The notes under the pieces: generated by a model
What the model was told of the DNA's origin: nothing
Databases searched by the model: none
Seen by the model: only the letters and a program-made list of their open reading frames with translations
Shown: positions 5,519 to 45,284 of the stretch, in pieces
How the letters are laid out: each line of letters starts with the position of its first letter
How positions within the stretch are numbered: position 1 is the first letter of the stretch
Source of the DNA: Amoebophrya sp. A120
Taxonomy: Eukaryota; Protista; Dinoflagellata
NCBI GenBank assembly: GCA_905178155.1
Contig: CAJINV010000005.1
Span: 8,306,515 to 8,370,514 of the forward strand
DNA length: 64,000 bases
Direction: 5' to 3'
Made by a program: the position numbers and the translations under genes

Positions 5519-8500
5519 ATGATCATGAGGCCTCACGTTCCGGCTTCGGTGAGGATGTCCCGGAGGTGGAAAAAAAGGTGTCCAAGAACAGTAGTTTCTG
5601 CACATAAAAAGGTAAAAAATCCACCGGCAGAAGTTGTTGTGCAGCGGCCACTACTGAAGAACAAGAAGCGACCTGAACAAGAATTTCTTCCTTTCTTCCC
5701 GCGACGTTCTTGGTTCCGGTCCTGTCTGCAAATTTTTGTCATTTCTGGGTCGACGTTCTTCCTGCTCTTCCTTGGTCTTTTCTCGTGCGAAAAAGACCAC
5801 GACGACCACGAGCAGCACCATAAGTCCTCCTCCTGCTCGTCCCAGCAACATTGGCAGCATGACGAGCGCCAAACTATCAAAAGCAAAAGGCTTCGCACAG
5901 CACAGCAGCAGGAGCTTTGTCATCTTCGTGACCTCGCGGGAGCAGTACCACAGCCCGCGAATTTTCAACATCTACTTCATCCTGGCGCTTCATTTAGTAC
6001 AATTTTCGTGGCGGCAGCGGCACTAGAAGGAACCACGTCAGGCCGCACCAGAGCAGATGCAGAAAGCAACTCTGTTGTGGAGGATGAAGATCATTCTGCA
6101 GGAATCAAACTGCAACAACTACACGACCGCACGACAGCACGAGGAGGGGCGCAGGCGCAGCATCAGCTTGAAGATGTAGATGGTGAAAACAACATTACGT
6201 CGGCACTTCAGATGAGAAGTAGAACGGTACTAGCGCAAGAAGGACCACAAGCAGAAGTAGACTTGGCAGAAGCCCTGGAGGTGGAACAAGCTGCAGGCAG
6301 TCCAACAGATGACCACGACCTGGTAAACTTTTCGCCCGAGGACGAGAATAGTGAGCCTCAAGATCATCTTCAAAGCGGTGCGGGAGGAGAGCAAGAGCAT
6401 GATGGAAGAAGTTCTTACCTAGATGATGGTGCTGGTGATGTTCTTGTACCACGGCTATTACCACAAGAACAAATCGACCTTGGTCGTGGTGGTGGTGGAG
6501 AAAAAAAGACTACTACTAAAAGCTCTACTTCTACTTCCCCCACCACAGGAGCTGCCGCTTCTCACATCATCAACTCTCGTCCACCCGGAAGTAGCAGTTC
6601 ATTTGTGGACGAGTTCTTCCTGGAGAGCGACGGCGGGTCCTGGACAACATCTTTAGTACCCGCAAGAACTAGTACACCAGCATCTTCTTCACCTAGCCCG
6701 GGCGAGGGCGGTGGTCCTCGGGATGAAGGATGTAGTGAAGAAGACGAAGCAGGTGAAACTGGAACCACAGGTGGAACAACTACAAGGTGTAGCGGAATTG
6801 TTACGCTGAAAGCTTCAACATCTTCTGTGGTGCCAGACGTACAACATCGTGCCTCCGGACAGCAGAAGCTGTCAACAAGAACTTTCGCTTCTTCTACTGC
6901 AGCACCTTCTACAACAAAAACTTCTCTCGCAAGGACTACAACTCCCGAGTCTTTTCTCCAAAAATTTTTCCGGCAGCGTCGAGAAAGCGAAAAGCAGAAA
7001 ACAAGTCGGAAAATTGGAAAGATGGCCAGGGAAGAAGTAGAGCATCAAGTGCAAGAACGCGACGGGTATCAAATGAAAAAATGTCTGGGTCTGGAAAGTT
7101 GCAACTTGTGTTGCTGCCTTTGGAAGGTAAAAAAAATCTGTATTGCATGACCAGCAAGAGGAGCTCAGTTTGTGCTACGCGGAGTGGGCGTGTCTCATGC
7201 GGAATACGCATCAGATTCAGAAGGCCCTTATAAAAATCTATGATGCAGCTTGGTCATGCATTACAGGCATCATGGGTTGTGCAGAATATGCATGACAAAC
7301 CTGGCAGTCTTCCAGACCCAGACATTTCTGCACTTGATAACGGGTCGTACAGTTCCAATGGCGACGAGGACGAGGATGAGGACGGGCACTTTTTGGGTAG
7401 AAAAGATCCGAAGAAGGTCGCCCTCGAGAAACGTCGGAAGGAGGCGAAGCGTCTCGCGCTGGAGGATTTTAAGAAGAAACCGAAGCGGCGCGTGTACGTG
7501 GCCAGCTACAACGTTCTGTCGCTGCTGCAACACCGCAGCTCGGGGGGTCCGGACCTGCGTTCCATGAAATACCAGCTGCCAGACAAAAACAAATTTTTTC
7601 AAAAGTTTCTTAACATAGCGGAAAAAGACTTGCGAGCTGCAAAGTCAACGGAGCGGCCTGCTGCGATGAAGAAACAGAAGGATTACCTCCGCCTGGAGTT
7701 GGCCTGGAAGGAATTTGTTAACGGCCAATTGTGGACGCGGTACCCACTTACCTACTCGCAGCTGAGGGCCGTCGAGGGGTTATCCTGAGTAAAAACGTCC
7801 CCACCCCATAGTCAAGATGGGGACTTTGCAACACAAATCTAGGAGTTTTGGGAGTCACGCATGACAAGTTGCAGTCCGTAGTGTAGTGCAGGGTAGCAAG
7901 TGCAGCCGCATCACAGATCCATCTGCGTATCCTGTTCACAGCATCACAAATTCCAAAACACGACTGGAAATGTCTACCATGGCTATGCGCATCACAAGTG
8001 TCGTTGTCATTGCAAATCCGCATGCACAACCGCAAACGCAAGCGCCACAACTTTTAGCTGCGCAAGAACAACAGCCGCCGGCCCAGATGATGGTAGGAAT
8101 ACGGATGGGGAGGCCACTTAACGCACTAGTAGCTCTACTGCATGAAGTGAACGAACAACTAGACCAAGGAGCAGAAGATGGCCGAGAACGAGAGATAGAC
8201 GATGAGGAGGAGGCGCGAGGCAACGCTGCAATCCTACCGAACCCCAAGTACTACATCAGGACTAAAGACATCAAGAGGACGATGCGAAGGGCGTGGAACA
8301 GCATCAGAAAATGTAAAGAAGAACGAGAACGCAAACGGATCCCGGAGGAGGCAGCGACGGGGAGAAGCTGCTGCAAGGGCGCCGATACGAAAAAGGCAGA
8401 CGAGGGTATAATGAACGGAAGTAGAGGTATGGTTTAAATAAAGACTGCTGTTCTATTTCATAGTAAGAAATTAAATTGTTGATCACATTCACTGTTAAGG

Positions 8501-11500
8501 GCAGGAGGATAGAAGAGGAGAAGCGAAAATATAAGGAAAAGGGAAAAGAGGCGCGAGATACGAACGGGTCTGCAAGCTCCATTCTATGTACTTAGCTGCC
8601 GCGACATAGAATGGTACCCGTCAGGCTCGGGGAGCTACTCTCTATGAAATTGATGCAGGGCACAGACTTCGAATTCACTTTCCATAAAACAAGGGCTGGA
8701 CGGGACAGGTACTGACGTCGAAGCGCTCTGCGCCTGAGACGTCACACATAGCAACAGAGATCAAACGGGCGCCCTGATTCGATAACTACGCCGATGTTGC
8801 TATCTGGGACCAACATGCAGTCGCATCGCACACCCGGGAGAAATATAGTCAGATCATCTAACAAGAAAAGGGAAAGACACGCAACTAGGAACGGCGCGCT
8901 TTTGTGCATCTACTTCTCATCGAGTCCAGCAGAATGAGCCAAGGACACTGCCACCAAATCGACAACGGCCGCCCCGGGGTGGTAAGTGTCGACCAGACCG
9001 ACGGCAACATATTCTGCTGGGTGTGGGGAGTAGATTTCCAAAAGAGGAGGGAAGTATGTCTGAATATGCATGAAAAGCATGGAGATAGTGACCCTGAGTT
9101 ACCTTCATTTTTTCCGAGGGAAAAGTTTTGCATGCGAAGGTAAAGCAGGCTCGCGCTGCAAATCAGTGGGAGGAATGGATAAGTTATAGATTCAGGAAAA
9201 TTCTTGGCTATTTGTATGATTTGCATCTCTATGTATGTAGCAACCTTCACGTGGTGAAGCGTCCGCCAAATTGTATGAAAATTGTATGAGAGATTCCTGT
9301 TGCTATAATTTCTGGCATCATTCTAGCGGCAAGAATTATACCAATCTAAACCTCCGCCGAAATGCAGAGAGACATACTCGAGGCAGGGCGTCTACCTCTT
9401 TGCGTGTAAGGGCACCCGGCCCCTTTTCCTTTTCCTCTTTTTTTTGCATGCGGGTAGCCGAATAGAGGCTGAGCCGCATGCAATCCAAATCCGATTTGCT
9501 TGCTGCTGCTATGTATGCTTTGTATGTTTCCTGCCGCCTTGTAGTCGTTATTAAGCACCTCGTCTTTGCCGCTCTTCGTTTGTTTTGTCCAAGGAGCTAG
9601 ATCGCAAATTCGTGCGCTCCATCGCCTATGAAAAATTAGATCTTCCCTGTGCCCGGTGTTGTCCCATGTAGATTTAGGTCTCTACCCTTTTACAGTCTTT
9701 TGTCGTCTCCTCGCGCTTAGTCTTACTTGATCCACGACTTGTAGCGCTAGTCGTTCCGCGGACCCCGCGTCCTCGCAGGGGCTTTTCTTTTTTTTTCCGC
9801 CTAGCCAGCGGGTTGTTGCTTGGGGGGGTGTCAGCTTTGCGTGGCAACTTTATATGCGTGCTTTATTCCGGTTTTGCATGACAAAGATTTATTGGCTTTA
9901 CTACAGCACCCTGCAGACTATCTGCTTTGACTGCGTAGAGGCAACCGGTGTAGTCTTCCTAGCGCACTAGTTTCGCCCGCTGCTACCGGGTCAGTAGTTA
10001 GAAGAATTCAGGTTGCGCGGTCTCTAAATGGTCCGTGGGGGTGGCTTAAGTTTTGACTGGGTGACTTGTTAGCTCTAGAAAAAGCTCGCTTTCGTATTTC
10101 TAAGAACAGAAATTTTGCATGACAGATTCAGGCTCAGCTAAGCCGGTGTAGATAGTATCCCCCCGCACTGCTATGCCCCCAAACACATCTTTCCGGACGC
10201 TGCAAGATGGAGAGATGTGGCGTGTGCCGCTGCTACCGGCTCGACACGTAAAGGAAAACGAATCCGCGCGCTCGGCTTGGTAGCTACCCCCATGCCGTTC
10301 GGGTTTTAGCTGCCACTGGCGTCATTGATCGGCGTCGCCAATATCTCCATCCCGATGATTTCCATCTCTACGTTTGTGTATGGTGCATAGGAGCTTGCTC
10401 CTTTTTGTGCCGCGGTGTCGGAGGTTTTGCAGCATGCACGCACAAACAGCATTTATGGAAGCGGAGGGGGGGGCGCGGGACCCCCATCAAGTCGTCGCGG
10501 CGCGAAGCCGCAAATCCTTGGGCCACGTCTACCACCAGAAGTATTCCGCCCGGGGGCCGCTCAATCAATAGGCGGGCGCGTCCTATGCGGTCGGGTTTGA
10601 AAGGTACAGTCCGTGCGCCCGCAACTGCCGCAAGGCATCGAATCCGGGGGGTCAATATAAATTTTTTGTAGTGTTTTTTGATGCAATGTAGTGACGATGA
10701 TTCCGTAGCCTGGTTAGCCCGTCCAAACAGGGCAAAGAGCGCAGCGGCTTCCTGCGCAGCGGCTTCCTGCGCAGCGGCTTCCTGCGCAGCGTCGGTTCGT
10801 GCACGTGTGTCGCTCTTCGTTCGTTGCCTTCAGGAGCTTGATCGTAAATTCGTACGCTCCTTCTGCTTTGAAAAATTTCGATCTTCCCATCTGCCCCCAT
10901 CTTCCGATGTAGATTTAGGTCTCTACCCTTTTACTTCTTCTCTCGTGTAGTGTTCGTTGTTGTTTTACCTGACCCGCCTGCTTAGCGCTAGCCCGCGTAG
11001 CCCGCATCCTCGCAGGGGCAGCTGTTTTTTTTTCCGCCTTGCCAGCGGAGTTTGTCGCGGGGAAGAATGCAGTCTGGGTTCAACCGTCCCTCCCTCCCGG
11101 GGTTCAACCGTCCCGCCCCTCCTCATGTAAATAGTGAAAAACTTCTCTTGCGTTTTTAGTCTAGTCCTTTTTCCGTAGATCGTTTTTTATGTTCGACCTT
11201 ATGGCATCGGCGGCTGTCGCATTATGCGCCTGGTGTAGCTGTTCAAAGTCCCTCGGCATAAGGGTCATAGTCTCGTATACAAGGCGCGCGGCAGCTAAAT
11301 GCGCGCTTGGTCGTTCTAGAAAATTAGTACCAACTGACCCATTATCGGCCTATAGTATTCGTGGACCACCCCTTTGAGGAAGCGGGTGCGTTCGGTTGAC
11401 CACTTTCATAGGTTGGTCATGGGGAATTTATTCCCCACCTGTCATGCATGTTGGGTCGCCGAAGTCTCTGTTTTGCATGGCGTGCTCGAGTACCGGGGTG

Positions 11501-14500
11501 CTGGAAGACGAATTAGTTGCTAATAGATAGAATTGAAAAATTTTACTACTCTTCGTGCAGCGGCTTCTGCGCATAACTTTAGTCTCGACCTTTAGCCCCG
11601 CCCCCCCAAAAACATTACATATTTTACTACGTCTCCATCTACGTCCCATCGTAGACGTCTGCCGCGGCTTTCGGCATTAGACGTTAACTAAAACGAGTGC
11701 GTTGCGCGGGTTTAGGGTTCCCCCGGTTTGTATCTCCCGAAGGCATGCTTTGAAGGGTTTAGGGTTTCGAAAGAATTTATACCGCATGACGCGTGACGGG
11801 AGCACGCAATGTAAGCGCAGCGGGCGGGTACCGTTCTCGCCGTAACACAATTCCAGAAAGAAAGAAAAGAAGTGAGCCCCTCCCGCAGGCAAAAAAAAAA
11901 AAAAATCTGCATGACAACTCTGGGGTGGGGACGTTTTTACACAGGATAGGGGTGTGTCAAGAGCTACCCGGCATCGATGACGCCCTGGCGCGTGCCCGAC
12001 AGTGCCGGTCTATGCATTGCAAATATGTCTGGGTCCTCTGGAAGATTCTGAGACCTGTCATGCACGTTTTGCATGAGCCATGATGTCTGTGATGCATGCC
12101 CTAGCATCACAGATTTTTTCAGGGTTTCTTGATGCCTATTCCGCATGACAAAGGTCCTCTCCGCGTTGCAAAAATTCCATTTCCTTTGCTGCCTATGCAA
12201 TACAGATCTTTTTGGAATCCACACGCAGCATCACAAGTTACATCCACCTTCCAGGCCCAGACATTTTTGCACTTGATACGGTCGTCTTGCTTTCGATCAC
12301 GTCACGGCGCCGGGAGGAAAGTATCTTCAGCATCCGGCCATGTGCACCTGGGACGCCGGGCATTGGATCGCGAAATCGCAGTTGAGGTTCCCGTATGAAA
12401 TGCAAAAATGTCTGGGTCTGGAAACTTGTGATGCTAAAATGTGCATGATGACAACACTTCCGAATGCAGTCCGGCATGACAACTTCCCAAAACGCTTTCT
12501 CATAGGCAATCCGCATGAGAAACTCCGTTTTTGCATGACAAAAGAGGCTGCGACTTTTGTTCGTTATGCAATACAGATTTTCTAGGTATGGAAAGCTAGC
12601 ATTACAAGTCCCAACCTTCCAGACCCAGACATTTTTACAATCTATATCCCGTTGGCGCTGCTGGGTGTGCAGGGCTGGCCCGATGTGAAAACCAGCGTCT
12701 TGCCGCAGCAAGTTTCGTATGGATTGCAAATATGTCTTGGTTTGGAAGAATGCAGATGTTTGTCATGCTTGTCTCACATGACTCTTGAACCTGGAATGCG
12801 TGAGCAGGAAAAGACCCTCTTACCTGTCATGCAAAAATGTAGTTTGTCTTTGTCATGCGGAAAGCTAAACACATAGGAGCCCAGAAACTTGTCATGCGTG
12901 GCTGCCTATTGCAGTGTTCCCACAATTCACAAATTAGCATCACAAGTTTCCAGACCCAGACATATTTGCAATGCATATGTCAAGGGGACGTTGGTCCTCG
13001 GCAGGGGAGCAGGAGCAGAGTTTGATATCAAGGAAAAAAACGTTGTTAGTGTAAGTTTGTGATGCGCAACATTCAAGCTGATTGCGTCTGTCATGCTTGG
13101 CATGCGTCGTAGGGTTCATCAAAGGGCGTTTTCAGATAGTATCTGCGCATGACAGGTTTTTGCTGTCATGCGAGAGATATTTGCCATGCTGTTCCTCCAA
13201 AAAAGTTACACCTACAATGTTTTTTTCTTGGATATTTGAGTCCGGATGCTTACAAGTACGCCCTGCCCTTCGCTCATCCGTTTTACGAGACCCGAGCGCG
13301 GTATGGGAGTGTCAGGATCGAAATCGTCAAAGTTGAAATAATCTGTAATGCAAAAGAGCGATACCAGCTGGATAGCCCAGTTTGCAAGTGGCGCATGACA
13401 AATTTTGGCAGCATGGAAATCCAATTTGTCCTGCTGTTTGAGCAGAGAAGACTGCTTTGCTATTTTAGCAGCTCTATCTTACACCCCAAACTGGCTTATA
13501 ATCGGCCTCAGTTGCCTGCTCTGCAAGACAGGCCCACTGCGTCTAGCATTTTATGCATCACAAACTATTTCAACGTTGACCATTTCAATCCTGACGCTTC
13601 CATACGAGGGCCAGGACCTGGCTCCTTGACGGACTCATATCAACCGCAAATTATGATATCTGGGTCTAGAGGAAGAATGCAAGTAAAGTTTGTCATGCTT
13701 GTCTCACATGACTCTTGAATCTGTAATGCATGAGCAGGAAAGCAGCCTCTCACCTGTCATGCGAAAACGCAGTTTGTCATGCGGGAAGCGAAACACATAG
13801 GAGCTCAGAAACTTGTCATGCGCGGCTGCGTAACGAAGTGCGCCCACCATTCACAAACTAGCATCACAAGTTTCCAGACCCAGACATGTTTGCAGGTCAT
13901 AACCCAACGCCAAGGATCCGCAGCGCGAGTATGGATTGCAAATATCCCTGGATGTCTGGAAGGTTGCAACTTGTGATGCTGTCTCTGCATTCCAAAGAAA
14001 TGTGTATTGCATGACCAGCAAGAGAGGTCCTGTTTGTGCTACATGGAGAGGGCGTTTCGCATGCGGAATAGGTATCAGGAAACCCTCTAAAGATCTGTGA
14101 TGCTAGGTTATGCATTACGGGCGTCATGGGTCGTGTAAAATCTACATGACAAGTCTTCCATATTTTCAGAACCAGACATATTTGCATTTCATAGCGAAGA
14201 CGGCAACCGATTGGCAAAGTGGCAACGATTGGCAAAGTTTCAACCCGATCGGAACGCGCGGTGGCAAATTGGCAACGCGCACAGGTCGTGCGCCATCTTG
14301 CTGGACCTCGACACGTTGATGCGGGGCGGGGAATATCAAATGCAAATATGTCTGGGTCTGGAAGATTGCAAGGTTTATTGTCATCCACATTTTGCATGAC
14401 CCGTGATGTTTGTGATGTATGCCCCAGCATCACAAATTTTTTGCGGGCATCTTGACGCCTATCCCGCATGAGAAATCCCCCTATGTCGCGGAGCAAAAAC

Positions 14501-17500: not shown

Positions 17501-20500
17501 TGCAACCAAACTACAGCACTGCCGCAAGATATGGAAGTGTCAGAACCGAAATTGACAAAATCGAAAAACTTGTGATGCACAAAATCGATGCCAGTTAGAC
17601 CCACAGTTTGTAGTCGGCGCATGACAAATTCTCTTCGTCCTGGAAGCGAATCTGTCATGCGGTTTAGGGCAAAAGAGCTGCCTTCTGTCATGCTAGTCAG
17701 CAGCCCAACACTTATTCCTTGCCAGGACTACAATCCGCCTTCCTTGCATCCTCTGCAACAGAGTCGCTTTTTGCGTAGCATTTTACGCATTACAGAGCAT
17801 TTCGATTTTGTCGATTTCGATCCTGACACTCCCATACATGAAACAGCCAGGCGGCGAATGCGAACCAAGACCAAGGGCGGCAGGCGACTGCACGGGAGCA
17901 GCAAGATGCGGGCGACGGCGCAGGCGGGGAAGAAAATACCGGGTGGCGCATATCCTGAGTAAAAGCGTGGTCTCCATACCAGAGTTGTCATGCAAATGCG
18001 CAATAACAGGAACATTTGTAATGCGCAGCTCCATGAGAAAAGGAATTTCTAATCGTGATTTGGAATTTGTAATGCTGTAAACAGGATGTTAAAATGGCTT
18101 TCTCATGCGGCTTCTCTTACCAATCAGCACTACACTGCAGAGGGAACAAAGAACTTGTCATGCACAGCTCCCAAAGCTACTTGGAGACTTGTGTTGCTAG
18201 ATTCCCAACTTGACTATGGGGTGTGGGCCCCGTTCTTTTTGCTTAGGATAGCGCAGACAAGTGAGCAGAATCATCCTCGCAGTAGACTCGCGCGCGGAAG
18301 ACCGGTATGAAATGCAAATATGTCTGGGTCTGGAAGATTCTAAACTTGTGATGCTGTGTCTGGATTCTAAAAAAATTTGTATTGCATGACCAGCAAGAGG
18401 ACTCCAGTTTGTGCCACGCGGATAGGACATTTCTCATGCGGTAAGGGCATCGCAAAGCCCTCGAAAAAGCTGTGATGCTAGAGCATGCATCACAGACATC
18501 ATAGGCCATTCAAAATATGCATGACAAACCAGGCAATCTTCCAGACCCGGACATTTTTGCATTTGATAACCGGTGGGCGATTGACCAGCTTTTCGCACCA
18601 AGTCGAGACAGCGTATTCGAAGTGGGATATTGTGAGGAAAAATCCCCCCTCCCCATACCAAAGCGGGACTCTTCTGAAAATTTGTGATGCTGATTTGAGG
18701 CCACAAATCGTCTCTGTATTGCACGGAGAGAAATCCAAGAACCCCGCCGCGTTCTGCAGGCAATTTGTAATGCTGTTTGGCCAACGGAGGATATGCCGGC
18801 CTTGCTAGGCGCCTACACCAAAACGTCCCTAGTCCGGCTTTGTATAATCTATCTGGAGTCCTCTGCTGCAAGACAAATTCGATTTGTGTACACAGATCCT
18901 GCATCACAGATTTCCAGTTCGATACGGGGAGGGGGGATTTTTCCTTCTGATATCGGAAAAGGTTCCGGGCTTTTTTTTTACCTGGACGCAGGGAACAACG
19001 AGCTGGGGAGCTGTTTATCAAATGCAAATATCCCTGGATGTCTGGAACATTCTAAACTTGTGATGCTGTCTTTCGATTCTAAAAAAGATTTGTATTGCAT
19101 GACCAGCAAGAGGACTCCAGTTTGTGCCACACGGAGAGGGCATTTCTGATGCGGTAGAGGTATGATCGCAAACCGCTCTAAAAATCTGTGATGCTACGGC
19201 ATGCATCACAGACATCATGGGTCATGGAAAATATGCATGACAAATCTAGTAGAAGTCTTCCAGGCCCAGACAGTTTTGCATTTGATACTGTTGCAAGGGC
19301 GACAATAAGGTCGCGAACGGGCAACGAGTATCCTGTGCAAAAGTACCGTACTCGTATTGCAATCATGCATTACATCAAATCTTTTTTTTTAAAGGTAAAT
19401 TCGCATTACAAATTTTACTTCTCATGCTGAGAATTTGTAATGCATTTATTCGAGTGCGATTACGATACTTTTGCAGTTCATAACAAGTCATGGACGCAGC
19501 TGAGTACGGAAACAGGTATGCAAGTTGGACAGGAGGAGGTCAAGGTAGGGGGTATCAATTGCAAAAATGTCTGGGTCTGGAAGATTGCCAGGTTTGTCAT
19601 GCATATTTTGAATGACCGATGATGTCTGTGATGCATGCCCTAGCGTCACAGATTTTCAGCGGACTTTGTGATGCCTCTACCGCATGAGAAGTGCCCTCTT
19701 CACGTAACACAAACTGGAGTCCTTTTGCTGGTCATGCAATGCAAATTTTTTTAGAATCCAGAGACAGCATTACAAGTTTAGAATCTTCCAGACCCAGACA
19801 TTTTTACATTTGGTAGGGGGCAACCAGAGCCCACTCCCCTCCAGCCGCGGCTTGGAACGACATATCCGATGTAAAAACGTCCCCACCCCATAGTCAAGAT
19901 GGGGTCTCGGCTAGACAAATCCACAAGCTTTGGCTGTTTTGCATGACAGATCTCAGCTCGTCGTGTAGTGCTGTTTGAGCTATTTCAGCAGCATCACATA
20001 TCTAGTACATCATGCTGATTGGAGCATGGCAAATTCCAAAACACGACTGGAAAACCCTTTTCATGGGGCTCCGCATGAGAAACATTTTCAGCATGCAGAC
20101 TTGCACGACAGCTCTGGGGTGGGAACGTTTTTACACAGGATACGACGGGACCGGACTTTATCTTCGATACGGGCCTACATGACCCCAGATTCTATTGCAA
20201 GGAAAAATCCCCCCTCCCCATATCGAAAACGGAATTTCTGATGTTGTATTTGAGTATACAAATCGCCTTGGATTGCTAGAAGGCCAAGTGCCGCAGTTGT
20301 GCCGTCGTTTGCAGGCAACTTGTCATGCTGTTACCCACGTCCCAGCTGCCTCCTATCATGCTGAAGATGCAAGGCTTTCCCACGACGGCCAGTACTACAG
20401 TCCGCGTCTTTTGCCTTGTAGCATGGCAAAGCACCCCACAAATCTGCGTCACAGATTCCAAGAGACTAGTGATAGCGTTACTCCATTGCCGCCTTCGCGA

Positions 20501-21207
20501 TATTTTTTTAGCGGACCCCGCACGAGAACCCTGATGCGTTTCCCGCTTAGTACTGAGCCTGCTTGACTAACGTAGCAAACACATAGACACCCTTCGCTTC
20601 GGCACACCTCACCTGCCTAGTCGCCCCTAGGTAGGTGCAGGAATTTTCTGTGTGGGCTTTTTGTGCTGAATTATTCCAACAGGGGCTGCGTTTTTTTTTT
20701 CTGCCTTGCCAGCAGAGTATGTTTGTATGGGGGGGAATTGACGGAAGTGGCGCGAGACCTTGGTGACGGAGCAGACGACAAGAGCGGAAATGGTACAAAG
20801 CAAAAAAAAAGATGGTGTACACGCGCACTGCTTAACTGTGTGAAAGGTGTCGGCCCTGTGTAACCTGCTGCGGCAGGCAGGTGAATTCGTAGAACTGCAT
20901 CACATGTTAAGTAACGCCCACCGGCCTCCTAGATTAGTGATGAATTTATATGCGTTTTCAGTGTGGGGCCCAATGAAAAAAAAAAAAAAAAAAATCTGCG
21001 TCGAAGATTTCCGGTTTGATATGGGGAGGGGGGATTTTTCCTTGTGATCGATTCGGGGGCGTCACAGCAGAGCAGGGTGCGGCACAGCGAACCCAATTGG
21101 TGCCCGAGATCGAGAATGCGAATTTCGCTCCTCGGGAGTTGCAATCTTATTTTTCTGACCACAAACCCATTATGAAGCCGGTGTATGTGATAGATGACAC
21201 TGAGTAG
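5519..21207 (+). CDS. Gene 2, large protein with N-terminal hydrophobic segment, 25 TIR introns; function unknown
   Basis: First exon 5519-7066 contains LQIFVISGSTFFLLFLGLFSC. Elements at 7067-7339, 7781-11948, 12011-12278, 12394-12646, 12718-12977, 13026-13234, 13302-13604, 13638-13901, 13930-14193, 14334-14606, 14677-14986, 15606-15870, 16126-16384, 16450-16786, 16938-17199, 17239-17490, 17530-17836, 17951-18250, 18306-18568, 18628-18952, 19016-19287, 19329-19482, 19553-19815, 19863-20142, 20193-21049. The spliced frame is open to ..KPVYVIDDTE* (21207). RVYVASYNVLS weakly resembles the first motif of endonuclease/exonuclease/phosphatase domains. Confidence 0.85.
8025..11902 (+). mobile_element. 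Poly(A)-tailed retro-insert nested in family-B introner 7781-11948
   Basis: Host element breaks after AAATCCGCATG (8014-8024) and resumes after an A-tract at AAATCTGCATG (11903-11913). Host TSD GGGGT closes at 11949-11953. The insert starts in an open frame (to 8437); no reverse transcriptase motif recognised. Confidence 0.85.
10739..10791. repeat. 15-bp tandem repeat (GCGCAGCGGCTTCCT) x3.5
   Basis: Directly visible inside the nested insert. Confidence 0.9.
13026..13234. mobile_element. Introner family F (3 copies, about 207 bp), representative copy
   Basis: TIR TATCNANGAAAAAAACGTTGTTAGTGTAA; TSD TTTGA. Others at 29963 and 30264 (reverse orientation). Confidence 0.9.
13302..13604. mobile_element. 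Introner family G (3 copies, about 300-320 bp), representative copy
   Basis: TIR TATGGRAGTGTCAGGATCGAAATCGNCAAA. Others at 17530 and 41553. Confidence 0.9.
14677..14986. mobile_element. Introner family D (11 copies, about 310-330 bp), representative copy
   Basis: TIR TATNNNNAGGAAAAATCCCCCCTCCCCATATC / GATATGGGGAGGGGGGATTTTTCCNNNNNATA; TSD CCCGG. Other starts: 18628, 20193, 27290, 27775, 29154, 30562, 35260, 35952, 43118 (degenerate), 56745. Confidence 0.95.
16450..16786. mobile_element. Introner family H (3 copies, about 305-340 bp), representative copy
   Basis: TIR TATTRYAANGAAAAATGCYCCCACCCC. Others at 26930 and 29516. Confidence 0.88.
19329..19482. mobile_element. Introner family C (8 copies, about 145-190 bp), representative copy
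   Basis: TIR TATNNNNTGCAAAAGTATCGTACT / AGTRCGATACTTTTGCANNNNATA. Other starts: 5, 22709, 23581, 26570, 32873, 59485, 60673. Confidence 0.93.
20451..20991 (+). mobile_element. Poly(A)-tailed retro-insert nested in family-D introner 20193-21049
   Basis: Duplication AAATCTGCGTC at 20440-20450 and 20992-21002, with an A-tract immediately before the second copy. Confidence 0.85.
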
Positions 21208-22337: not shown

Positions 22338-25300
22338 ATGGGCGCCGCCGCAAGCTCCGCCCTGAAGGGGCCCGGAAAGGGAGGGAATAAAGACGGGGAT
22401 ACCAAATGCAAATATAATGTCTGGGTTTGGAAACTTGTGATGCAAGCCAGGGAATACTGGGCGCACTGTCATGCGTGGGCAAGCATGACAAGTTTTTGAG
22501 CTGCTATGTGTAGCGTATTCCGCATGGCAGACTGCGCTTCGCATCACAGACAAGACGATCTTATTACGCCTTCGCATGACCGGGTTCCGAGTCATGTCAG
22601 ACTAGCATGACAAATCTGGCAATCTTCCACACCCAGACATATTCGCATTTGATAGGGGAGAAAAACAAGCAACCATCGCAGCACCAGCAGTGGCGAAAGC
22701 CTAAAGATTATGCAATGCAAAATTTCGTACCAGTATAAATTACATATACAAATAATTAGCCCAGCATTACAAATTTGAATTTGTAATGCTGATTTACCTT
22801 GAGAAAGAGATTTGTAATGCATAAATGCAATTACTACGAGTACGATACTTTTGCACTGGATAAAGATTTGAAGGAAATCAAAAAGCAGAACGAGCAGCGC
22901 AGGAAAGAGCAAGAGGAGCTGGAGAAGCGACGAAAAGAGGCGGAAGAGAAGCTGAGAAAACAGAAGGGTAGCAAATGCAAATATGTTTGCGTCTGGAAAC
23001 TTGTGATGCTAAAACGTGGATGATGGAAACAGTTCCGCACGCATCCCAGCATGACAACTTTCTGGAACGCTTTCTCATAGGCATGAGAAAGTGCGTTTTT
23101 GTAGTATGTACAAAAGAGGCCCCGACTTCTTTTGTTGGTTATGCAATACAGACTTCCTAGGCATGGAAAGCTAGCATTACAAGTTCCAACCTTCCAGACC
23201 CAGACATTTTTGCATTTGATAAAGGAGCTGCTCGAACAGGAGCGAAAACGGTTGGAAACGTATCCTGAATAAAAACTTCCCCACCCCATAGTCAAAATGG
23301 GAAAGCAAATCTGCTAGACCAATCTACAACCTTAGGGTGTTGCGCATGACAAGTTTGGTCGCGTAGTGTAGTCCTTTTTAGCTCGTTCAGAAGCATCACA
23401 AAACTGCCCCACCGTGCTGATTGGAGCATTACAAATCCCAAAACAGCACGACGAGGAGTCGCTTCCCATCGAGCTCCGCATGAGAAACGTTTTGAGCATG
23501 CGTTTTTGCATGACAGCTTTGGGTTGGGGACGTTTTTACATGGGAGAAAACGGCCGAAGAGATCGACGGAGCAGAAGTCGTATGAACTGCAAAAGTATCG
23601 TACTCGTATTGCAATCATGCATTACAAATCTTTTTCTTGAGGTAAATCCGCATTACAAACCTTATTTCTCATGCTGAGGAAACTTGTAATGCATTCATAC
23701 GAGTACGTTACTTTTGCAATGCATAAGTCGGAGACTACGTCGCGGGGCAAACCACAGCGGGAAACACCGCGAGCAGCCCGGAATTGAGTCAAAACAACGA
23801 CATATCCTATGTAAAAACATCCCCACCCCAGAGTTGTCATGCAGATCTGCAATGACAAGAACATTTCTGATGCGCATCCCGATGATGGGCATTTCCAGTC
23901 GTGATTTGGAACTTGTAATGCTGTAAACGGGATAAGCGGATGGATTTGTAATGCGGCTCTCCACACTAACCTGCACTACAGTACGAACTGAAATTTGTCA
24001 TGCGTGACCACCAAAACTTCTAGGTTTGTGTTGCAAAGTCCCCATCTTGACTCTGTGGTGGGGACGTTTTTACTCAGGATACGACAACTACGGAGCAGGA
24101 GCAGCGGGGCAGAATGGCGAGCAGAACTACAATTTCAACCCTGATATCGAATGCAAATATGTCTGGTTCTGGAAGTAGGTTGCAACTTGTAATGCTGTGC
24201 TTGGATTCTAAAACAGTTATGTATTGCCTGACCAGCAAAAGGAGTGCCGTTCTTCCTACGCGGAGGGGGCATTTATTGTCATGCGCAATAGGCATGATCA
24301 GGGAGCCCTCTAATAATCTGTGATGCTAAGCCGTGTAGTTGTACAGGCATTCTGGGCCATGCACATATGCATGACAAAGAACCTGGCAATCTTCCAGACC
24401 CAGACACGTTTGCTGTTGATGCCTGATTACGTCTTCTTCGACGATCAAACGGGCAAATTATCACAAGAAAAAACTGTTTCACTGTAAACTTGTAATGCAG
24501 AAAATGCATCTGAGAAGTGTTTGTCTTGCTAGTCATGCAAGACAGTGGATTTTTAGCTGTGTTTTCCCTTAGGGATCTCGCATGGCAAATTTTCTCTGTG
24601 AAGATGTAGAGCAAACTTGTGATGCAGAACTTGCAAAATCCTTACAGTGAAACACTTTTTTCGTACGATACAAATACATCGCCTACGACTACGACGAGCA
24701 GGGTAATATCATCAACATGCAGGACGTCTTATCAAATGCAAATATGTCTGGGTCTGGAAGGTCGCCAGACTTGTCATGCAGGTTTTCCATGACGCATGAG
24801 GGCTGTGGCTGTCATATATGAGCTAGCATGACAGATTCTGCGCGACCTCTATCATGCCTCGCCTGCATGAGAAACTGCCTCTCAACTTGGTCAGAAGTGA
24901 GCAGCTTTTGGCAATCACGCAACACAGATTTTCGCACTATCCAGAATTAGCATGACAAGTTCCAGTGTTCCAGACCCAGACATATTTGCAATGCATACGT
25001 CTCGGTGCACTACGAAACGGCGGCCGAGAAAGCGCTGAAGAAAGCGGAACAGGTATCCCCAGTAAAAACAACATCCCCATCCCAGAGTTATGATGCAGAT
25101 TTGCAGTGACAGGAAGACTTGTAACTAATGCGCATCTCCACGAGAGGCATTCGCATTTCCAGTCGTGTTTTGAAATTTGTAATGCGGTAAACAGGATAAG
25201 ATAAGGAGATGGCTTTGTGATGCGAGTTTTCGTACTTGCTACAGTGCACTACAATACACAGAAGATTTTGTCATGCGCGAATTCCAAGGCATGTGGATTT

Positions 25301-31300: not shown

Positions 31301-34300
31301 CCTATTATGCTGATTGGAGGGAGCATTTTACAAATTCCAAAACACGGCTTCGAGCAAATGCTTCTCATGGTGCTCCGCATGAGAAACCTTTTTAGCGTGC
31401 AGATTTGCATGACAGCTATCGGGTGGAGATGTTTTCACACAGGATACAGCTCATTTTTCAGCACGGGGAGAAGATGCGACAAGAAGAGTACATGCGCCAA
31501 GAGGAATATCCGAGAAAAAAACTATGTGAGTGTAAGTCTGTGATGCAGAAAATGCAAAACTGTTTACACTTGTCATGCTGCTCTTCCGTACAAAGTTACA
31601 CTTACACAGTTTTTTTGCTGGATACAGAACAGAGAAGCAGCCGAAAAAATTCGAAGTCGCAAAACAGCGTACCGACCACCGGGGGTTTCGGGCTGCCGTC
31701 CATGGAAAAAATGCAGGCGGATAGGGCGAAGTATTTTAATTTGTTTTTTTCAAAGACTGTAAGAAGTACTTTACCAATTATGGCCTCACTGCTGGCAAAA
31801 GATGTTGTTCTTGGCTTGTTCATCTTGCAGTGAAAATAGTAGTTGTCGTCCGGCGGAAGATGTTCTTCCAGTGGGTTTTTTTTGTGAATATAGAGTACGT
31901 TTTATGTTGGTCAAAAATTTTGAAACAGGATGGACCAGCAGCAGCAGCAGCAGCAGACCCAGCAAGCTCAACAGCAGCAACAGGCCGCCCAGCAGCAGCA
32001 GCAAGCCGGGAAGACAAAATGGATTCCCTACTCCACCTATGCATTGCAAATATGTCTGGATCTGGAAAGATGCAACTTGTCATGCTCAATCTGGATCGTG
32101 CCAAAAATTTGTGTTGTATGATCAGAAAGAGATGTCCACTTTTAAACAAGTTCAGATGGAGTTTCTCATGCAGGATAGGCATGACAGAGACCGTACAGAG
32201 TCTGTCATGCTAGGCCCCGCATTCCAGACCTCATGGGTCATGGAAAACCTGCATGACAAGTTTACACTCTTCCAGACCCCGACATATTTGCATTTGATGC
32301 CACCGAAGACGGCAACGTCTTCTACTACAGCGAACAAACGGGCGAATCGGTGTGGGAACTGCCCGCAAACGCAGAAGTCGACTACAGTAACTGCGAAAAC
32401 GACACTAATGTCGAGCAGCAACGGCAGAAAGAGGAGGACGAGTACTACCAACAGTACGGGTACGCAAACCGGCAAGCCTACGAAGACGCTTGGTACAAGG
32501 CGGAGGCAGAGAAACAGGCGAAAGAGCAACAGAAAATAAAGGAACAAAAGCAGGACCCTATCCTGAGTAAAAACGTCCCCACACCAGAGGCAAGATGGGG
32601 ATTTTGCAACACAAGCCTAGAAGCTTTGGGAGTCACGCATGACAAATTGCACTCCGTAGTGCAGTGCAGGATAGCAAGTGCAGCCGCATCACAGATTCAT
32701 CTGCTTATCCTGTTCATAGCATCACAAATTCCAAAACACGATTGGAAATGTTTACCATAGGTATGCGCATCACAAATGTCCTTGCCATTGCAAATCTGCA
32801 TGACAACTCTTGGGTGGGGACGTTTTTCCTCAGGATAGACCCGTTTTACCACTTGCGACAGCACGAGCAGCATATCCTGTGCAAAAGCATCTTCGCACTT
32901 ACTCGTGATGATTGCAGGCATGCATGCATGACAAATTTCCTTTCCAAGGTGAAACAGCACGACAAATTCAATTTTTCATGCTGAGAACATTTGTAATGCA
33001 ATTTATACTAGATAGTGCGATGCTTTTGCAATTCATACAGCAACAGGCACAACAGCAAGCCGAGTGGGCGGAGTGGTACTGCTGTAAATGAGGTTTTATT
33101 TTGGTAAATGCATGGATCGTGTGTGCGCTATGCATGACAGGCAGCTGTTGCGTTGCGCTGCCTCGCATGACAAAGGCAAGTTTCTTCGAAAATATAATCT
33201 ACAGGTACAAGCAATATCAAGCGTGGTACGCCGGGAGTGTGGGTGGACAACAGCACCAACTTATGGGAATGAAATATATACTTCCTGTCATGAGGATGAG
33301 CTTTTGTTTAAATAGCATTTTATGCATGACAAAACCGCTCTGCAGTCATGCAGACTAGGACAGCAAATGACAAGTTTAGTATTTCATCCCCATATTGCAC
33401 AACCAGCAGCAAAACAATCCGTATGGAAATAACAGCAGCCAGCCCTTCGTTGGCAACCCCTACCAAAACCAGCAAAATACCAATGCGGGCTACGGAGCAC
33501 AACAGCAACGGGGACCACACCACAATGCAAACTCCCCCGGTATGGCGTTCTCAAGCGTTACATTCTCAACTGTTACATGAATTTGTAATGCAAGGCTAGC
33601 ACAGGCGAGAGAGAGAACCTTGCGCGTCTTGCATTACAGGTTTGGTGCGGATTACAGTGCTATTTAGCCATCCGGGAATTTGTCATGCGAAGCAGCTCGA
33701 TCGTCTGGCGGGTCATGGTCATTTTGCATGACAAATCGTGTAACAGTTGAGGATGTAACGTTTGAGAACCCCATACCCGGCGGGCCACAGCATCAGCAGA
33801 ACCAGCGACCTCCCACTGGGGGAACCCCGAATTTGCCGCCCGGGGTGCGCTATCAAATGCAAAAGTGTCTGGGTCTGGAAGAATGCGCGATTTACATTAA
33901 CATTGCTTGACTTCCGGGTTCTGGTACGGCATACCCCCAGCGAGAGGTGAACTCGACAGGTGACCTCGACAGGTGACCTTGACAGGTGACCTTGACCGGT
34001 GACCTAGACAGGTGACTTGGACAGGTGACCTGTACAGGTGGCCGCGACAGGTGACGACGACAGGCGAGGCGAGAGGATAAATCACAGGCGAGGCCAGCGC
34101 CTACGCTCGTGTCGTATGTTATTGACGTGAAAAGCAAACATTTGCGACACAGAAAATGAAAAAGAGAAAAGCGCAAAAAAAAAAACTGCGACGCAGAACA
34201 TGAAAAAGATAAGAGCGCAAAAACACAAACTGCCCCCACACACACACAAAGAAGTCTCTGCGTCGCGGTGCAAAAATATTAAAAAAGTGCTTTCTCTTTG

Positions 34301-44300: not shown

Positions 44301-45284
44301 GGCAACGGAGGACGAGCAGGCGAAGATTACGTGGGAGGCGCTGGTTGGTGGAAAAGTTGGCGGTAATCAAGGAAAAAGGAGCCAGTCACGATGTGCCTTT
44401 CGCGTTTTTTATTTTTTGCCACGGCATTGGTATTTGAATTTCGTTTGTCATCAAGATATGCATTTGTTGTGTCTGTGTGTATAGGAAGTCGATGAAAACA
44501 ACATTATATATAATTGTCTTTGTCGATGTTTTGTACCATGACGCCTTGATGCAGTCGCTTCTGTAGAAGTGAGATGGCAAGCCGCGAAAAGCGTTTCCTC
44601 AGCACGGGATATCCTGAGTAAAAACATCCCCACACCAGGGTCAAGATGGGGATTTTGCAACACAAACCTAGAACTTTTGGGGGTCACGCATCACAAGTTG
44701 CAGTCCGTAGTGTAGCGCAGGTTCGCAAGGCCAGCTGCATCAGAAATCCATCTGCTCATCCTGTTTACAGCATTACAAATTCCAAAACACGACTAAAATA
44801 AAATGCCTCTCCTGGCGATGCGCATTACAAATGTTCCTGTCATTGCAAATCTGCATGACAACTCTGGTGTGGGGACGTTTTTACTCAGGATACGGGAACT
44901 GGCGTGCTTATATAGCATGAGCGATCCTCGTGATGAAGTTTCTTTCTTGCATATGAGAGTGCACAACTCACCCTCCCCCTCATTTGTAGGGCATGAGGAG
45001 CAATACAAGCGTCGGCAAGAGTGCAGGCTTTGCATGACGAATTCGCCCCGGATGGTAGGGTTGTTTGGGCTGCCAGAATCTGTCATGCAAAGAAGTGCCA
45101 CGAGGCAAACGGAAAGGCGCGTTTGGTATTCAACATGACAAATGAAGAGGGGGAGGGGGAGTTGTGCACCCTCATATTGCATACCTGGCATCGAGAAGCC
45201 TCGGGTCTGGAGGGGAGAGATGCGCCCGCCAACAGGGAATGGGGATTAGGTATCCTGGGTAAAAACGTCTCCATCTTCCGGTAG
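37981..45284 (+). CDS. Gene 4, putative secreted/surface protein (paralogue A); 3' end appears truncated
   Basis: Signal-peptide-like start MATKTAAALLCAYLVLFDGPIGFLFVSAVA. Elements at 38926-39198, 39255-39533, 41160-41421, 41553-41872, 42222-42525, 43118-43447, 43676-43943, 44610-44892, 44952-45176, and a half element from 45251. Inferred GT-AG introns at 40053-40151, 40251-40776 and 44363-44566. I could not resolve the frame between about 42670 and 43090 (frameshift or unseen exons). Confidence 0.65.
39255..39533. mobile_element. Introner family L (2 copies at the homologous site of genes 4 and 5)
   Basis: TIR TATGCCAAGAAAAA / TTTTCTTGGCATA. Second copy 53281-53567. Confidence 0.88.

Follow-up and report, generated by a model that had tools for sequence, protein, structure and literature searches.

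A polyadenylated insert nested within a terminal-inverted-repeat introner of Amoebophrya sp. A120

An enlarged family-B introner in a protein-coding gene

The gene considered here encodes an Amoebophrya sp. A120 protein deposited as 'unnamed protein product, partial' (P0001; 100% identity over 146 aa). It is interrupted at 7781-11948 of the window, the whole 64-kb stretch of DNA that was analysed, by a family-B element of 4,168 bp with terminal inverted repeats (TIRs) and a target site duplication (TSD). A second, inner TSD lies within the element. The features at the locus are as follows.

7340-7780 (+): upstream host exon, ending ...SQLRAVEG; an X3 contig lies on 7340-7774
7776-7780 and 11949-11953: left and right copies of the outer TSD, GGGGT, 5 bp
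7775-11947 (+): 4,173 nt that the transcript contigs lack, made up of the element and one TSD copy
7781-7808 and 11921-11948: left and right TIRs, 1 mismatch in 28 nt
7781-8024 (+): left arm of the introner, equal to copy positions 1-244 without gaps; 90.6% identity to 32559-32837
8014-8024: left copy of the inner TSD, 11 nt, AAATCCGCATG
8025-11890 (+): insert body, 3,866 bp, without recognisable protein or RNA family
8087-8437 (+): ATG frame of 116 codons, at the insert's 5' end, without relative
9567-9811 (+): internal duplicated unit, copy 1, ~76% identity to 10808-11048
10808-11048 (+): internal duplicated unit, copy 2, holding the module CAGGGGC-N5-T9-CCGCCTTGCCAGCGG, common to insert 2 (described below)
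11891-11905 (+): poly(A) tail, A15, whose last 3 A overlap the TSD and can be assigned to it
11903-11913: right copy of the inner TSD, 11 nt, AAATCTGCATG
11914-11948 (+): right-arm remainder, 35 nt, containing the right TIR
11954-12010 (+): downstream exon, 57 nt, CVKSYPASMTPWRVPDSAG, followed by a family-A introner at 12011-12278

The inverted arms of the element extend over 47 nt at 81%, and the left TIR starts with TAT-CCTGAGT-AAAAA, which fits TAT, 7 nt and AAAAA. Shuffles predicted 0 matches to the TIR pattern in the window, where 17 were found. Our census of the window counted 41 normal-sized elements with TIRs and a perfect 5-bp TSD and 3 oversize ones, and the family is repeated in the metagenome set (92 stretches). 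Intact family-B copies, which include 32559-32837, 44610-44892, 23803-24081, and 52752-53031, are 279-283 bp long and have 5-bp TSDs. Introner elements (IEs) of A120 are described in the intron passages of Farhat et al. 2021 (PMC7789003) as having inverted repeats (8-20 nt or more) at each end of the intron, a 3-5-nt direct repeat that overlaps the exon/intron borders, and an inverted-repeat motif of TAT, 7 variable nt, and at least 3 A. Inverted ends, direct repeat, motif, a repeated family, and non-canonical removal (in runs presumed to be RNA) were all found at 7781-11948.

The layout read by the initial annotation was borne out by alignment to the intact copies 32559-32837 and 23803-24081 (reverse complement), which served as breakpoint references. 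The left arm ends at 8024, where 3,878 bp ending in A15 interrupt the family-B copy at its position 244, and the right arm picks up ~3.9 kb further on, past the A tract, with 11903-11948 equal to copy positions 234-279. The matching outer GGGGT copies stand as well. The inner TSD corresponds to copy positions 234-244 of the intact copies, so exactly 11 nt were duplicated, and 244 + 46 - 11 gives 279, the canonical length.

The nested insert and its poly(A) tail

In a tree of family-B copies, the joined arms of the split copy were sister to 32559-32837 (ultrafast bootstrap 98, SH-aLRT 96) within a 100/100 subfamily of seven rows, where its tip was the shortest (0.035). Because the split copy nests deep among short copies, the insertion is the derived state. 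The two copies of the inner TSD differ only at one position (C at 8019, T at 11908). The TSD begins with AAA, and the nick site in the target is GC|AAAT. There are 14 homopolymer runs of at least 9 in the window, and A runs of at least 15 occur only as the tails of inserts 1 and 2. Hallmarks of L1-type target-primed reverse transcription (TPRT) are a 3' poly(A) abutting the TSD, a TSD of ~7-20 bp, and an A/T-rich nick site. The anatomy of the insert is supported as a fit to TPRT by these sequence features, and the idea of a poly(A) retro-insert hidden in an introner was upheld by an A15 that abuts the right TSD copy, an 11-nt TSD, and the derived position in the tree.

The insert is not itself the full-length element with reverse transcriptase and endonuclease domains that had been hoped for: it encodes neither domain, and neither was found across the 64-kb window. 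The stop-to-stop frame 8027-8434 had 0 matches among 1.84 billion representatives. No Pfam family reached the curated cut-off in 84 frames of at least 35 aa from inserts 1 and 2, a search that returned five chance-level matches (E 0.0014-0.049), and none was found in 11 larger frames. The insert had 0 Rfam matches and 0 tRNAs, and the 92 metagenome loci held no copy of it. Elsewhere in the window, insert 1 has a counterpart only for a single module of ~43-45 nt; the offset matches of the internal duplicated units extend to 10082 and 11323. The insert also lacks any introner copy; this agrees with a retrocopy without being decisive. Core dinoflagellate retrogenes carry a DinoSL relic; the A120 insert differs, as the 13-nt motif had 0 matches in the window with up to 2 mismatches. 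Judged by this sequence content, insert 1 is a non-autonomous retrocopy that was likely mobilised in trans.

Removal of the enlarged element from transcripts

Contigs from three of the four runs X3-X6 (X3, X4, and X6), which stem from one sample of one study and are only tentatively taken to be RNA, carry a joint 7774>11948, with exactly 4,173 nt left out. The first X3 record, 4,186 nt long with a depth of 26, covers 6500-7061, 7340-7774, and 12279-12388, and its 58 intervening letters are 11948-12005. Five neighbouring introners are skipped by the same contigs. The bins of 8089-8542 had zero cover in all four runs though a contig joins across them, and three RNA raw-read runs gave 0-4 reads. 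Public protein P0001 reads ...AVEGCVKSYP... across the site (stretch RAVEGCVKSYPASMTPWRVPDSAGRLAFDH), so both protein and contigs agree with the in-frame union AVEG|CVKSYP that had been proposed. The initial annotation's 4168-bp TIR intron was right in the length of the element, while the stretch removed is instead 4,173 nt, as it adds one TSD copy. The cut may sit 0-6 nt further right because AGGGGT repeats (a 6-nt joint ambiguity), and GT..AG is found in none of the seven possible cuts (AG..AT, GG..TA, GG..AG, GG..GG, GT..GG, TT..GG, and TA..GT). U1 snRNA was absent from the genome in a published search, as stated in PMC7789003.

The predicted terminal duplex has an energy of -61.3 kcal/mol; four intact family-B copies range from -56 to -75, and shuffles give -23 +/- 4.6. 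In the minimum free energy (MFE) fold of 7761-11968, 7781-7812 pairs with 11917-11948, and the 31-bp terminal stem is kept. The earlier suggestion that removal tolerates length thus gains from an element 15 times the canonical length that is nevertheless absent from transcripts and keeps its terminal stem in the MFE fold. The natural insertion and the folding energies together argue that the cis requirement may be bounded to the terminal stems.

Other nested inserts

A second case lies in the same window.

20193-21049 (+): family-C introner of 857 bp with outer TSD GATTC; intact copies are ~294-325 bp

Its insert is ~0.5 kb long and ends in A19 (20976-20994), and its inner TSD, AAATCTGCGTC, occurs at 20440 and 20992 and reaches ~21 nt if mismatches are allowed. 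Across 20193-21049, which is annotated as an intron, public protein P0002 reads ...GLHDPRF|GGVTAEQ.... A third insert with poly(A) and TSD was found at metagenome locus L040 (A15, 11-nt TSD). The bodies and 3' ends of these poly(A) inserts are unrelated to one another, and their target sites are GC|AAAT (case 1), AC|AAAT (case 2), and GC|AAAG (L040). With five further nested inserts, eight were validated. In six of the eight, one boundary lies 31-37 nt from an end of the element: 35 (case 1), 37 (case 2), 31-36 (window 33851-35205), 36 (L040), 35 (L031), and ~31 (L014). The proposal that introners act as safe havens for other elements is strengthened by the seven nested inserts beyond case 1, yet introns of a compact genome ordinarily meet this fate.

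Proposed history and alternative explanations

We hold with high confidence that a family-B introner created the intron, that a polyadenylated RNA of 3.9 kb later struck it 35 nt short of the 3' end (likely through TPRT), and that the enlarged element with one copy of the 5-bp duplication is what the contigs lack. After the TIR introner had created an intron in the host gene, a non-LTR retrotransposon enzyme encoded elsewhere would have made a nick in the bottom strand at 5'-GCAGATTT|GC. The resulting T-rich end would have served as primer on the poly(A) tail of a transcript that is unrelated and either non-coding or orphan, and a second nick 11 nt off would have yielded the TSD. As for the enzyme, a source within the genome is inferred from PMC7789003 only, where autonomous non-LTR retrotransposons are reported in A120. 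Removal from RNA would proceed as for ordinary A120 introners, in that the paired TIRs would unite the exon ends and the non-canonical cut would fall at the direct repeat. It would need the terminal ~35-46 nt on the 3' side and their 5' pairing partner, while a loop of up to 4.1 kb would be irrelevant.

We weighed this history against readings in which the insertion, the DNA, or the RNA step is not what it seems. If the 4.2-kb form were ancestral, the 279-bp copies would be deletions between the two 11-nt repeats, and such a deletion does leave one repeat copy, as in the short copies. This is very improbable: the split copy is nested at a tip of subfamily B1 (98/96) and does not fall as an outgroup, the uninterrupted junction is shared by a second subfamily (100/100), the interior holds no transposase or other domain, a pure A15 adjoins the repeat, and the 5' 560 bp of the insert are single-copy in the DNA-like run X1. 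The same run bears on an assembly artefact, in which unrelated DNA was misplaced within an ordinary introner. High-copy repeats flank the region, and the right-hand junction (~11890-11913) is absent among the X1 contig pieces listed, but an independent X1 unitig (775 nt) runs across the left junction, spanning 7946-8720 with 0 differences at a single-copy depth of 42. A misjoin would not yield an 11-nt duplication with A15, nor arms that sum to the canonical length, and the same layout recurs at two further loci, which leaves misassembly with almost no credence. Precise excision of the DNA in expressing nuclei, like that of ciliate IESs, would also give contigs lacking the element. The missing part, element plus one TSD copy, is what a footprint-free product would lack, and no GT-AG reading is available. 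Nevertheless, X1 depth is 42-48 in the insert's unique part (8022-8582), equal to that of the neighbouring exon (46 over 7461-7647), 7774>11948 is not among the 15 X1 joints listed (119 further joints exist in X1), and Farhat et al. treat such elements as introns validated by RNA-seq in the passages concerned (PMC7789003). Loss at the DNA level is accordingly most improbable.

Two further readings concern how the insert entered. A 13-nt TSD with an expanded A3 instead of an A tail is formally possible, as GC precedes both the A run in case 1 and L040 and the AAA in the target, but unlikely, as three independent tracts of A15-A19 speak against it. The same retro-derived insert could also have been primed at a pre-existing, structure-dependent break atop the terminal stem, ~35 nt from the end, instead of at a position selected by a retrotransposon endonuclease, which would make introners mutational hot spots and more than tolerant sites. 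The clustering of six of eight boundaries at 31-37 nt has a binomial tail of 1.6e-6 (0.0044 for a window of 31-58), both windows being post hoc. Case 1 and L031 share the identical phosphodiester, copy 244|245, despite TSDs of 11 and 17 nt, different tail types, and different orientation. TSD length varies among the poly(A) inserts (11, ~21, and 11) while the near-end boundary is constant, and the site maps to a 5-nt internal loop above the terminal stem when an intact copy is folded. Against such a break, the TSDs of all three poly(A) inserts start with AAA after C, as expected of an L1-like endonuclease; few inserts are involved, and the window was set once the data had been seen; and two inserts lie elsewhere, at copy positions ~79 and ~140. 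Because family-B ends are inverted repeats, a preference for TTGC|AAA would mimic the distance rule for two of the six. On balance, we regard priming at such a break in case 1 as unlikely. We give slightly more room, though still with doubt, to the broader notion that Amoebophrya introners are insertion hot spots, in which a stem-top break ~35 nt from either end is a recurrent entry for retro-copied RNAs and other DNA and the composites can be remobilised. If true, either the enzyme that mobilises the introner itself or a nuclease that processes hairpins could make the break, the TIR-flanked composites could remobilise as new, longer introners, and A120 introners that mix DNA-transposon ends with retroelement-like interiors would be explained.

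Comparison with known systems

Our preferred history, an introner later struck by a polyadenylated RNA, likens insert 1 to L1-type non-autonomous retroposition (processed pseudogenes, SVA- or Alu-like elements). The resemblance lies in the poly(A), in TSDs of 11, ~21, and 11 nt that start with A's, in unrelated insert bodies and 3' ends, and in the lack of coding capacity for reverse transcriptase or endonuclease. A spliced or 5'-truncated source is putative.

The outer element resembles the A120 IEs of Farhat et al. 2021 (PMC7789003) in its TAT, 7 nt, and at least 3 A, in border repeats of 3-5 nt, and in having no GT-AG. As described there, IEs also share many copies of ~240-280 nt, removal confirmed by RNA, and a hairpin model that unites the exon ends, whereas 7781-11948 reaches 4,168 bp through nested insertion. 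The intron analysis in that paper retained only introns of 40-1000 bp, so a copy of 4,168 bp would fall outside its IE statistics, and its passages on introns and introner elements make no mention of nested inserts. Nonconventional introns of euglenids, as described in PMC11282704, leave as circular RNA and likewise have non-canonical borders, TSD-like repeats, and inverted ends that pair in RNA. Their lengths, from dozens to several thousand nt, provide a precedent for length tolerance in end-paired introns. They differ in lineage and element families, and with the ends TATCCTG...CAGGATA of 7781-11948 the euglenid CAG/CTG pairing motif is not at the positions stated in that paper.

Long TIR-flanked introners have already been reported in A120 by Gozashti et al. 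2025 (PMC12130899), in whose main text the word 'nested' does not occur. Their 'family 38' and similar families are alike in being long introners with TIRs and a retroelement-related interior that are still introns. Those families, as presented there, have several near-identical copies and ORFs homologous to Copia/Gypsy, and are read as one unusual transposon. Insert 1, in contrast, is single-copy and domain-free, with a poly(A) and its own TSD, which clearly marks a secondary nested event.

Implications for Amoebophrya introners

Amoebophrya has thousands of introns with hairpin ends and no GT-AG, and the locus serves as a natural insertion experiment on the way they are removed. That removal is still exact when the loop is 15 times as long and the element is broken 35 nt short of its 3' end argues against a measurement of length. 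Poly(A)-type retroposition of non-coding RNAs appears to be active in the compact A120 genome, and the clustering of nested inserts at 31-37 nt offers a lead on introner insertion sites. Retro-derived DNA can lurk in TIR introners, and introner families could therefore be misassigned to retroelement classes.

A family-B introner split by a poly(A) insert

We scanned the whole window for elements with "TAT..." ends whose inverted arms measure 24 nt and whose flanks carry a perfect 5-bp repeat. This identified 41 elements between 145 and 337 bp long, three that are oversize (4,168, 857 and 1,355 bp), and one match that is a cross-pair of two adjoining elements. The ends of the window elements obey the A120 introner rule as worded in the relevant passages of Farhat et al. 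(PMC7789003), namely TAT, seven variable bases and at least three A. As a separate observation, two family-B copies (19863-20142 and 23803-24081) lie 3.7 kb apart in opposite orientation with near-equal TSDs (CGACA/CGACG and CGACA/CGACA, respectively), which may reflect either coincidence or a common target preference.

The largest element, 7781-11948, carries family-B TIRs (28 nt with one mismatch) and an outer TSD of GGGGT. Alignment to two intact 279-bp reference copies (32559-32837 and 23803-24081) resolved it into two arms:

Left arm, 7781-8024: positions 1-244 of the intact copy, ungapped
Right arm, 11903-11948: positions 234-279 of the intact copy

Because the arms overlap in copy positions, 11 nt (AAATCYGCATG) are present exactly twice, and removing one of them regains the canonical family-B length (244 + 46 - 11 = 279). 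The insert between the arms is 3,878 bp long, with A15 at its 3' end (11891-11905). The initial annotation was accurate in every coordinate that it gave, and the split introner with its insert is a genuine feature.

The direction of the event was evaluated using a maximum-likelihood tree in which the two arms of 7781-11948, joined, were placed among ten family-B copies. The joined arms were sister to 32559-32837 (support 98/96) within a seven-row subfamily (support 100/100) and had the shortest tip of all. The junction was uninterrupted in the second family-B subfamily as well. This nesting, together with the uninterrupted junction, indicates that the short form is ancestral and that the 3.9 kb were inserted later.

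Removal of the split introner from transcripts

Contigs from three of the four runs of one study (X3, X4 and X6; one sample, with their RNA nature only guessed) join 7774 to 11948, omitting 4,173 nt. The X3 contig (4,186 nt) reads 6500-7061, 7340-7774, 11948-12005, 12279-12388 and onward, without six consecutive introners. By the coordinates of the record, the 57-58-nt exon has exactly 58 letters to occupy, so there is nothing else at the 7774/11948 joint. The joints along this transcript are:

7061>7340, 7774>11948, 12005>12279, 12388>12647, 12714>12980, 13020>13235

All six introns of this stretch (7061-13235) are TIR/TSD introners, each removed as the element plus one TSD copy, with a border ambiguity of 2-6 nt and no GT-AG reading. 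For 7781-11948 the cut could fall at any of seven places across AGGGGT, and GT..AG results from none of them. Contigs from these runs join across the unique stretch of the insert (8089-8542), and no contig covers it. As far as contigs can show, 7781-11948 is an intron. Three RNA raw-read runs (X8-X10) contributed 0, 2 and 4 placed reads, respectively.

Exon 7342-7779 is 100% identical to the NCBI "unnamed protein product, partial [Amoebophrya sp. A120]" (P0001), a protein in which no Pfam domain was found. The P0001 sequence runs over the join (...SQLRAVEGCVKSYPASMTPWRVPDSAGRLAFDH...), and the database annotation therefore already models this intron. The omission in the contigs and the continuity of P0001 agree with the earlier proposal of an intron that leaves the host frame intact. 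The intron analysis described in Farhat et al. (PMC7789003) was limited to 40-1000 bp, so this intron would lie outside the introner statistics of that study. Elsewhere in the window, two long open frames (50049-51254 and 55518-56804) gave only weak or small domain matches, namely a KilA-N match that falls short of the cut-off (E 7e-4) and a RING finger that reaches it.

The end duplex of 7781-11948 was calculated at -61.3 kcal/mol, against -56 to -75 for four intact family-B copies and about -23 for shuffles. When the 4,208-nt stretch is folded as a whole, the minimum-energy structure pairs 7781-7812 with 11917-11948, and folding of an intact copy places the insertion point in an internal loop immediately above the terminal stem. 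The terminal inverted repeats may pair with the insert looped out. The 3' cis requirement would thus be bounded to the last 35 nt (46 including the TSD copy), and the locus shows that a 4.1-kb loop is tolerated, in line with the suggestion in the initial annotation that removal is length-tolerant and defined by the ends. Euglenid nonconventional introns, which are likewise end-paired, can be as long as several thousand nt (PMC11282704). The 7781-11948 element fits the published hairpin model without proving it.

Further nested inserts

The family-B TIR 20-mer was used to scan a metagenome set, which gave 92 loci (371 kb) carrying the same introner families. Two further oversize introners in the window and five in these loci hold inserts.

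Introners with inserts other than 7781-11948 (positions in the window or in the named metagenome locus)
Window, 20193-21049 (case 2): family-C introner, 857 bp, outer TSD GATTC; ~0.5-kb insert with A19 end, TSD-flanked
Window, 33851-35205: family-A introner, 1,355 bp, outer TSD TGCGC; 1.09-kb insert, left break 31-36 nt from the end
L040, 227-2783: family-B element; 2.25-kb insert, A15 end, TSD (A)AAGTCCCCAT
L031, 1547-2930: 1.08-kb insert, 17-nt TSD, (TC)n end, no poly(A)
L014, 1255-1671: ~135-bp insert, TSD ~8-10 nt, no poly(A)
L003, 632-1465: insert without TSD
L018, 3392-4539: insert without TSD

The inner TSD of case 2 starts AAATCTGCGTC and, when two substitutions and one indel are allowed for, reaches about 21 nt; a public protein (P0002) spans this element with ...GLHDPRF and GGVTAEQ... 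joined. The insert in 33851-35205 has abundant tandem repeats (one unit of 92 bp present about five times, another of 12-13 nt), with neither poly(A) nor TSD, and a protein search with the neighbouring exon (33380-33538) had no matches. Of the five metagenome inserts, only that of L040 combines poly(A) with a TSD, and its nine frames matched no Pfam family. Another two are TSD-flanked but lack poly(A), and the remaining two lack a TSD. When a perfect outer TSD is required throughout, 5 of 206 elements are longer than 400 bp. Three further candidates (L060, L075, L010) were dropped for mismatched outer flanks and another (L026) as ambiguous. A generic inverted-repeat listing and a split-HSP scan each returned mostly pairs of adjoining elements. 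Also in the window, 59511-60795 is a candidate introner-within-introner, in which an outer pair spanning 1,285 bp (five TIR mismatches, 4/5 TSD) encloses a 268-bp element (60133-60400).

Nature of the inserts

A tail, a TSD and an AAA-initial target are hallmarks of target-primed reverse transcription. The A15 tail, 11-nt TSD and AAA-initial target of the insert in 7781-11948 (insert 1) support its earlier reading as a poly(A) retro-insert. No Pfam family was found at the curated cut-off in its 11 larger frames, or in 84 frames of at least 35 aa from inserts 1 and 2 (case 2), where five matches were at chance level. Searches of insert 1 for Rfam matches, tRNAs, a DinoSL (spliced-leader) relic and an introner copy were also negative, and its 5' frame (8027-8434) had no relatives among 1.84 billion representative proteins. 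The enzyme for its reverse transcription must have come from elsewhere. Autonomous non-LTR retrotransposons are reported for A120 in sections of Farhat et al. (PMC7789003); none was found in the window.

Within the window, insert 1 matches solely its own ~250-bp internal duplication (76%) and a 43-nt stretch of insert 2, and the 92 metagenome loci hold no insert copies bar a 40-nt low-complexity match. Depth in a DNA-like read run (X1) was 42-48 over its first 560 bp (single-copy), compared to 46 on the exon. Depth over the remainder was about 70-330, and contigs there show a few percent divergence, so insert 1 belongs in part to a low-copy repeat.

We rejected the grouping of inserts 1 and 2 as one family, their common part being solely a 43-56-nt module; their 5' and 3' ends aligned no better than shuffles. 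The 45-nt module (CAGGGGC-N5-T9-10-CYGCCTWGCCAGCRG) has three matches in the window, all in these two inserts and in equal orientation relative to the tails (9776-9811, 11013-11048 and 20680-20722), and none in the 92 metagenome loci.

Comparison with published introners and insertion sites

TE insertions within introns are commonplace. The introners of A120, their odd borders and their hairpins have already been published, and PMC12130899 describes long A120 introners that have TIRs at their ends and retroelement-like DNA inside, interpreted there as unusual transposons. We found no dated, TSD-bounded poly(A) retro-insert in a still exactly removed introner among the introner papers covered, partly as titles and abstract starts. 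Neither PMC12130899 nor PMC11282704 nor the 2020 Polarella preprint uses the word "nested" in its main text. The overall reading of 7781-11948 is supported.

The target sequence AAATCTGC is common to case 1 (7781-11948) and case 2. The window contains 17 sites of this kind, and P(TCTGC|AAA) is 0.0043. The idea of a site-specific target is weakened by L040, in which the TSD is instead AAAGTCCCCAT. There are eight nested composites in all (three in the window and five in metagenome loci), and in six of them one boundary falls at a distance of 31-37 nt from one end of the element. Case 1 and L031 are broken at the identical bond (copy position 244|245) though they differ in TSD length, orientation and tail. 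Binomial tail probabilities are 1.6e-6 with a window of 31-37 and 0.0044 with a more generous one of 31-58, the two windows having been set post hoc. A possible insertion hot spot in introners is the most promising lead from this locus.
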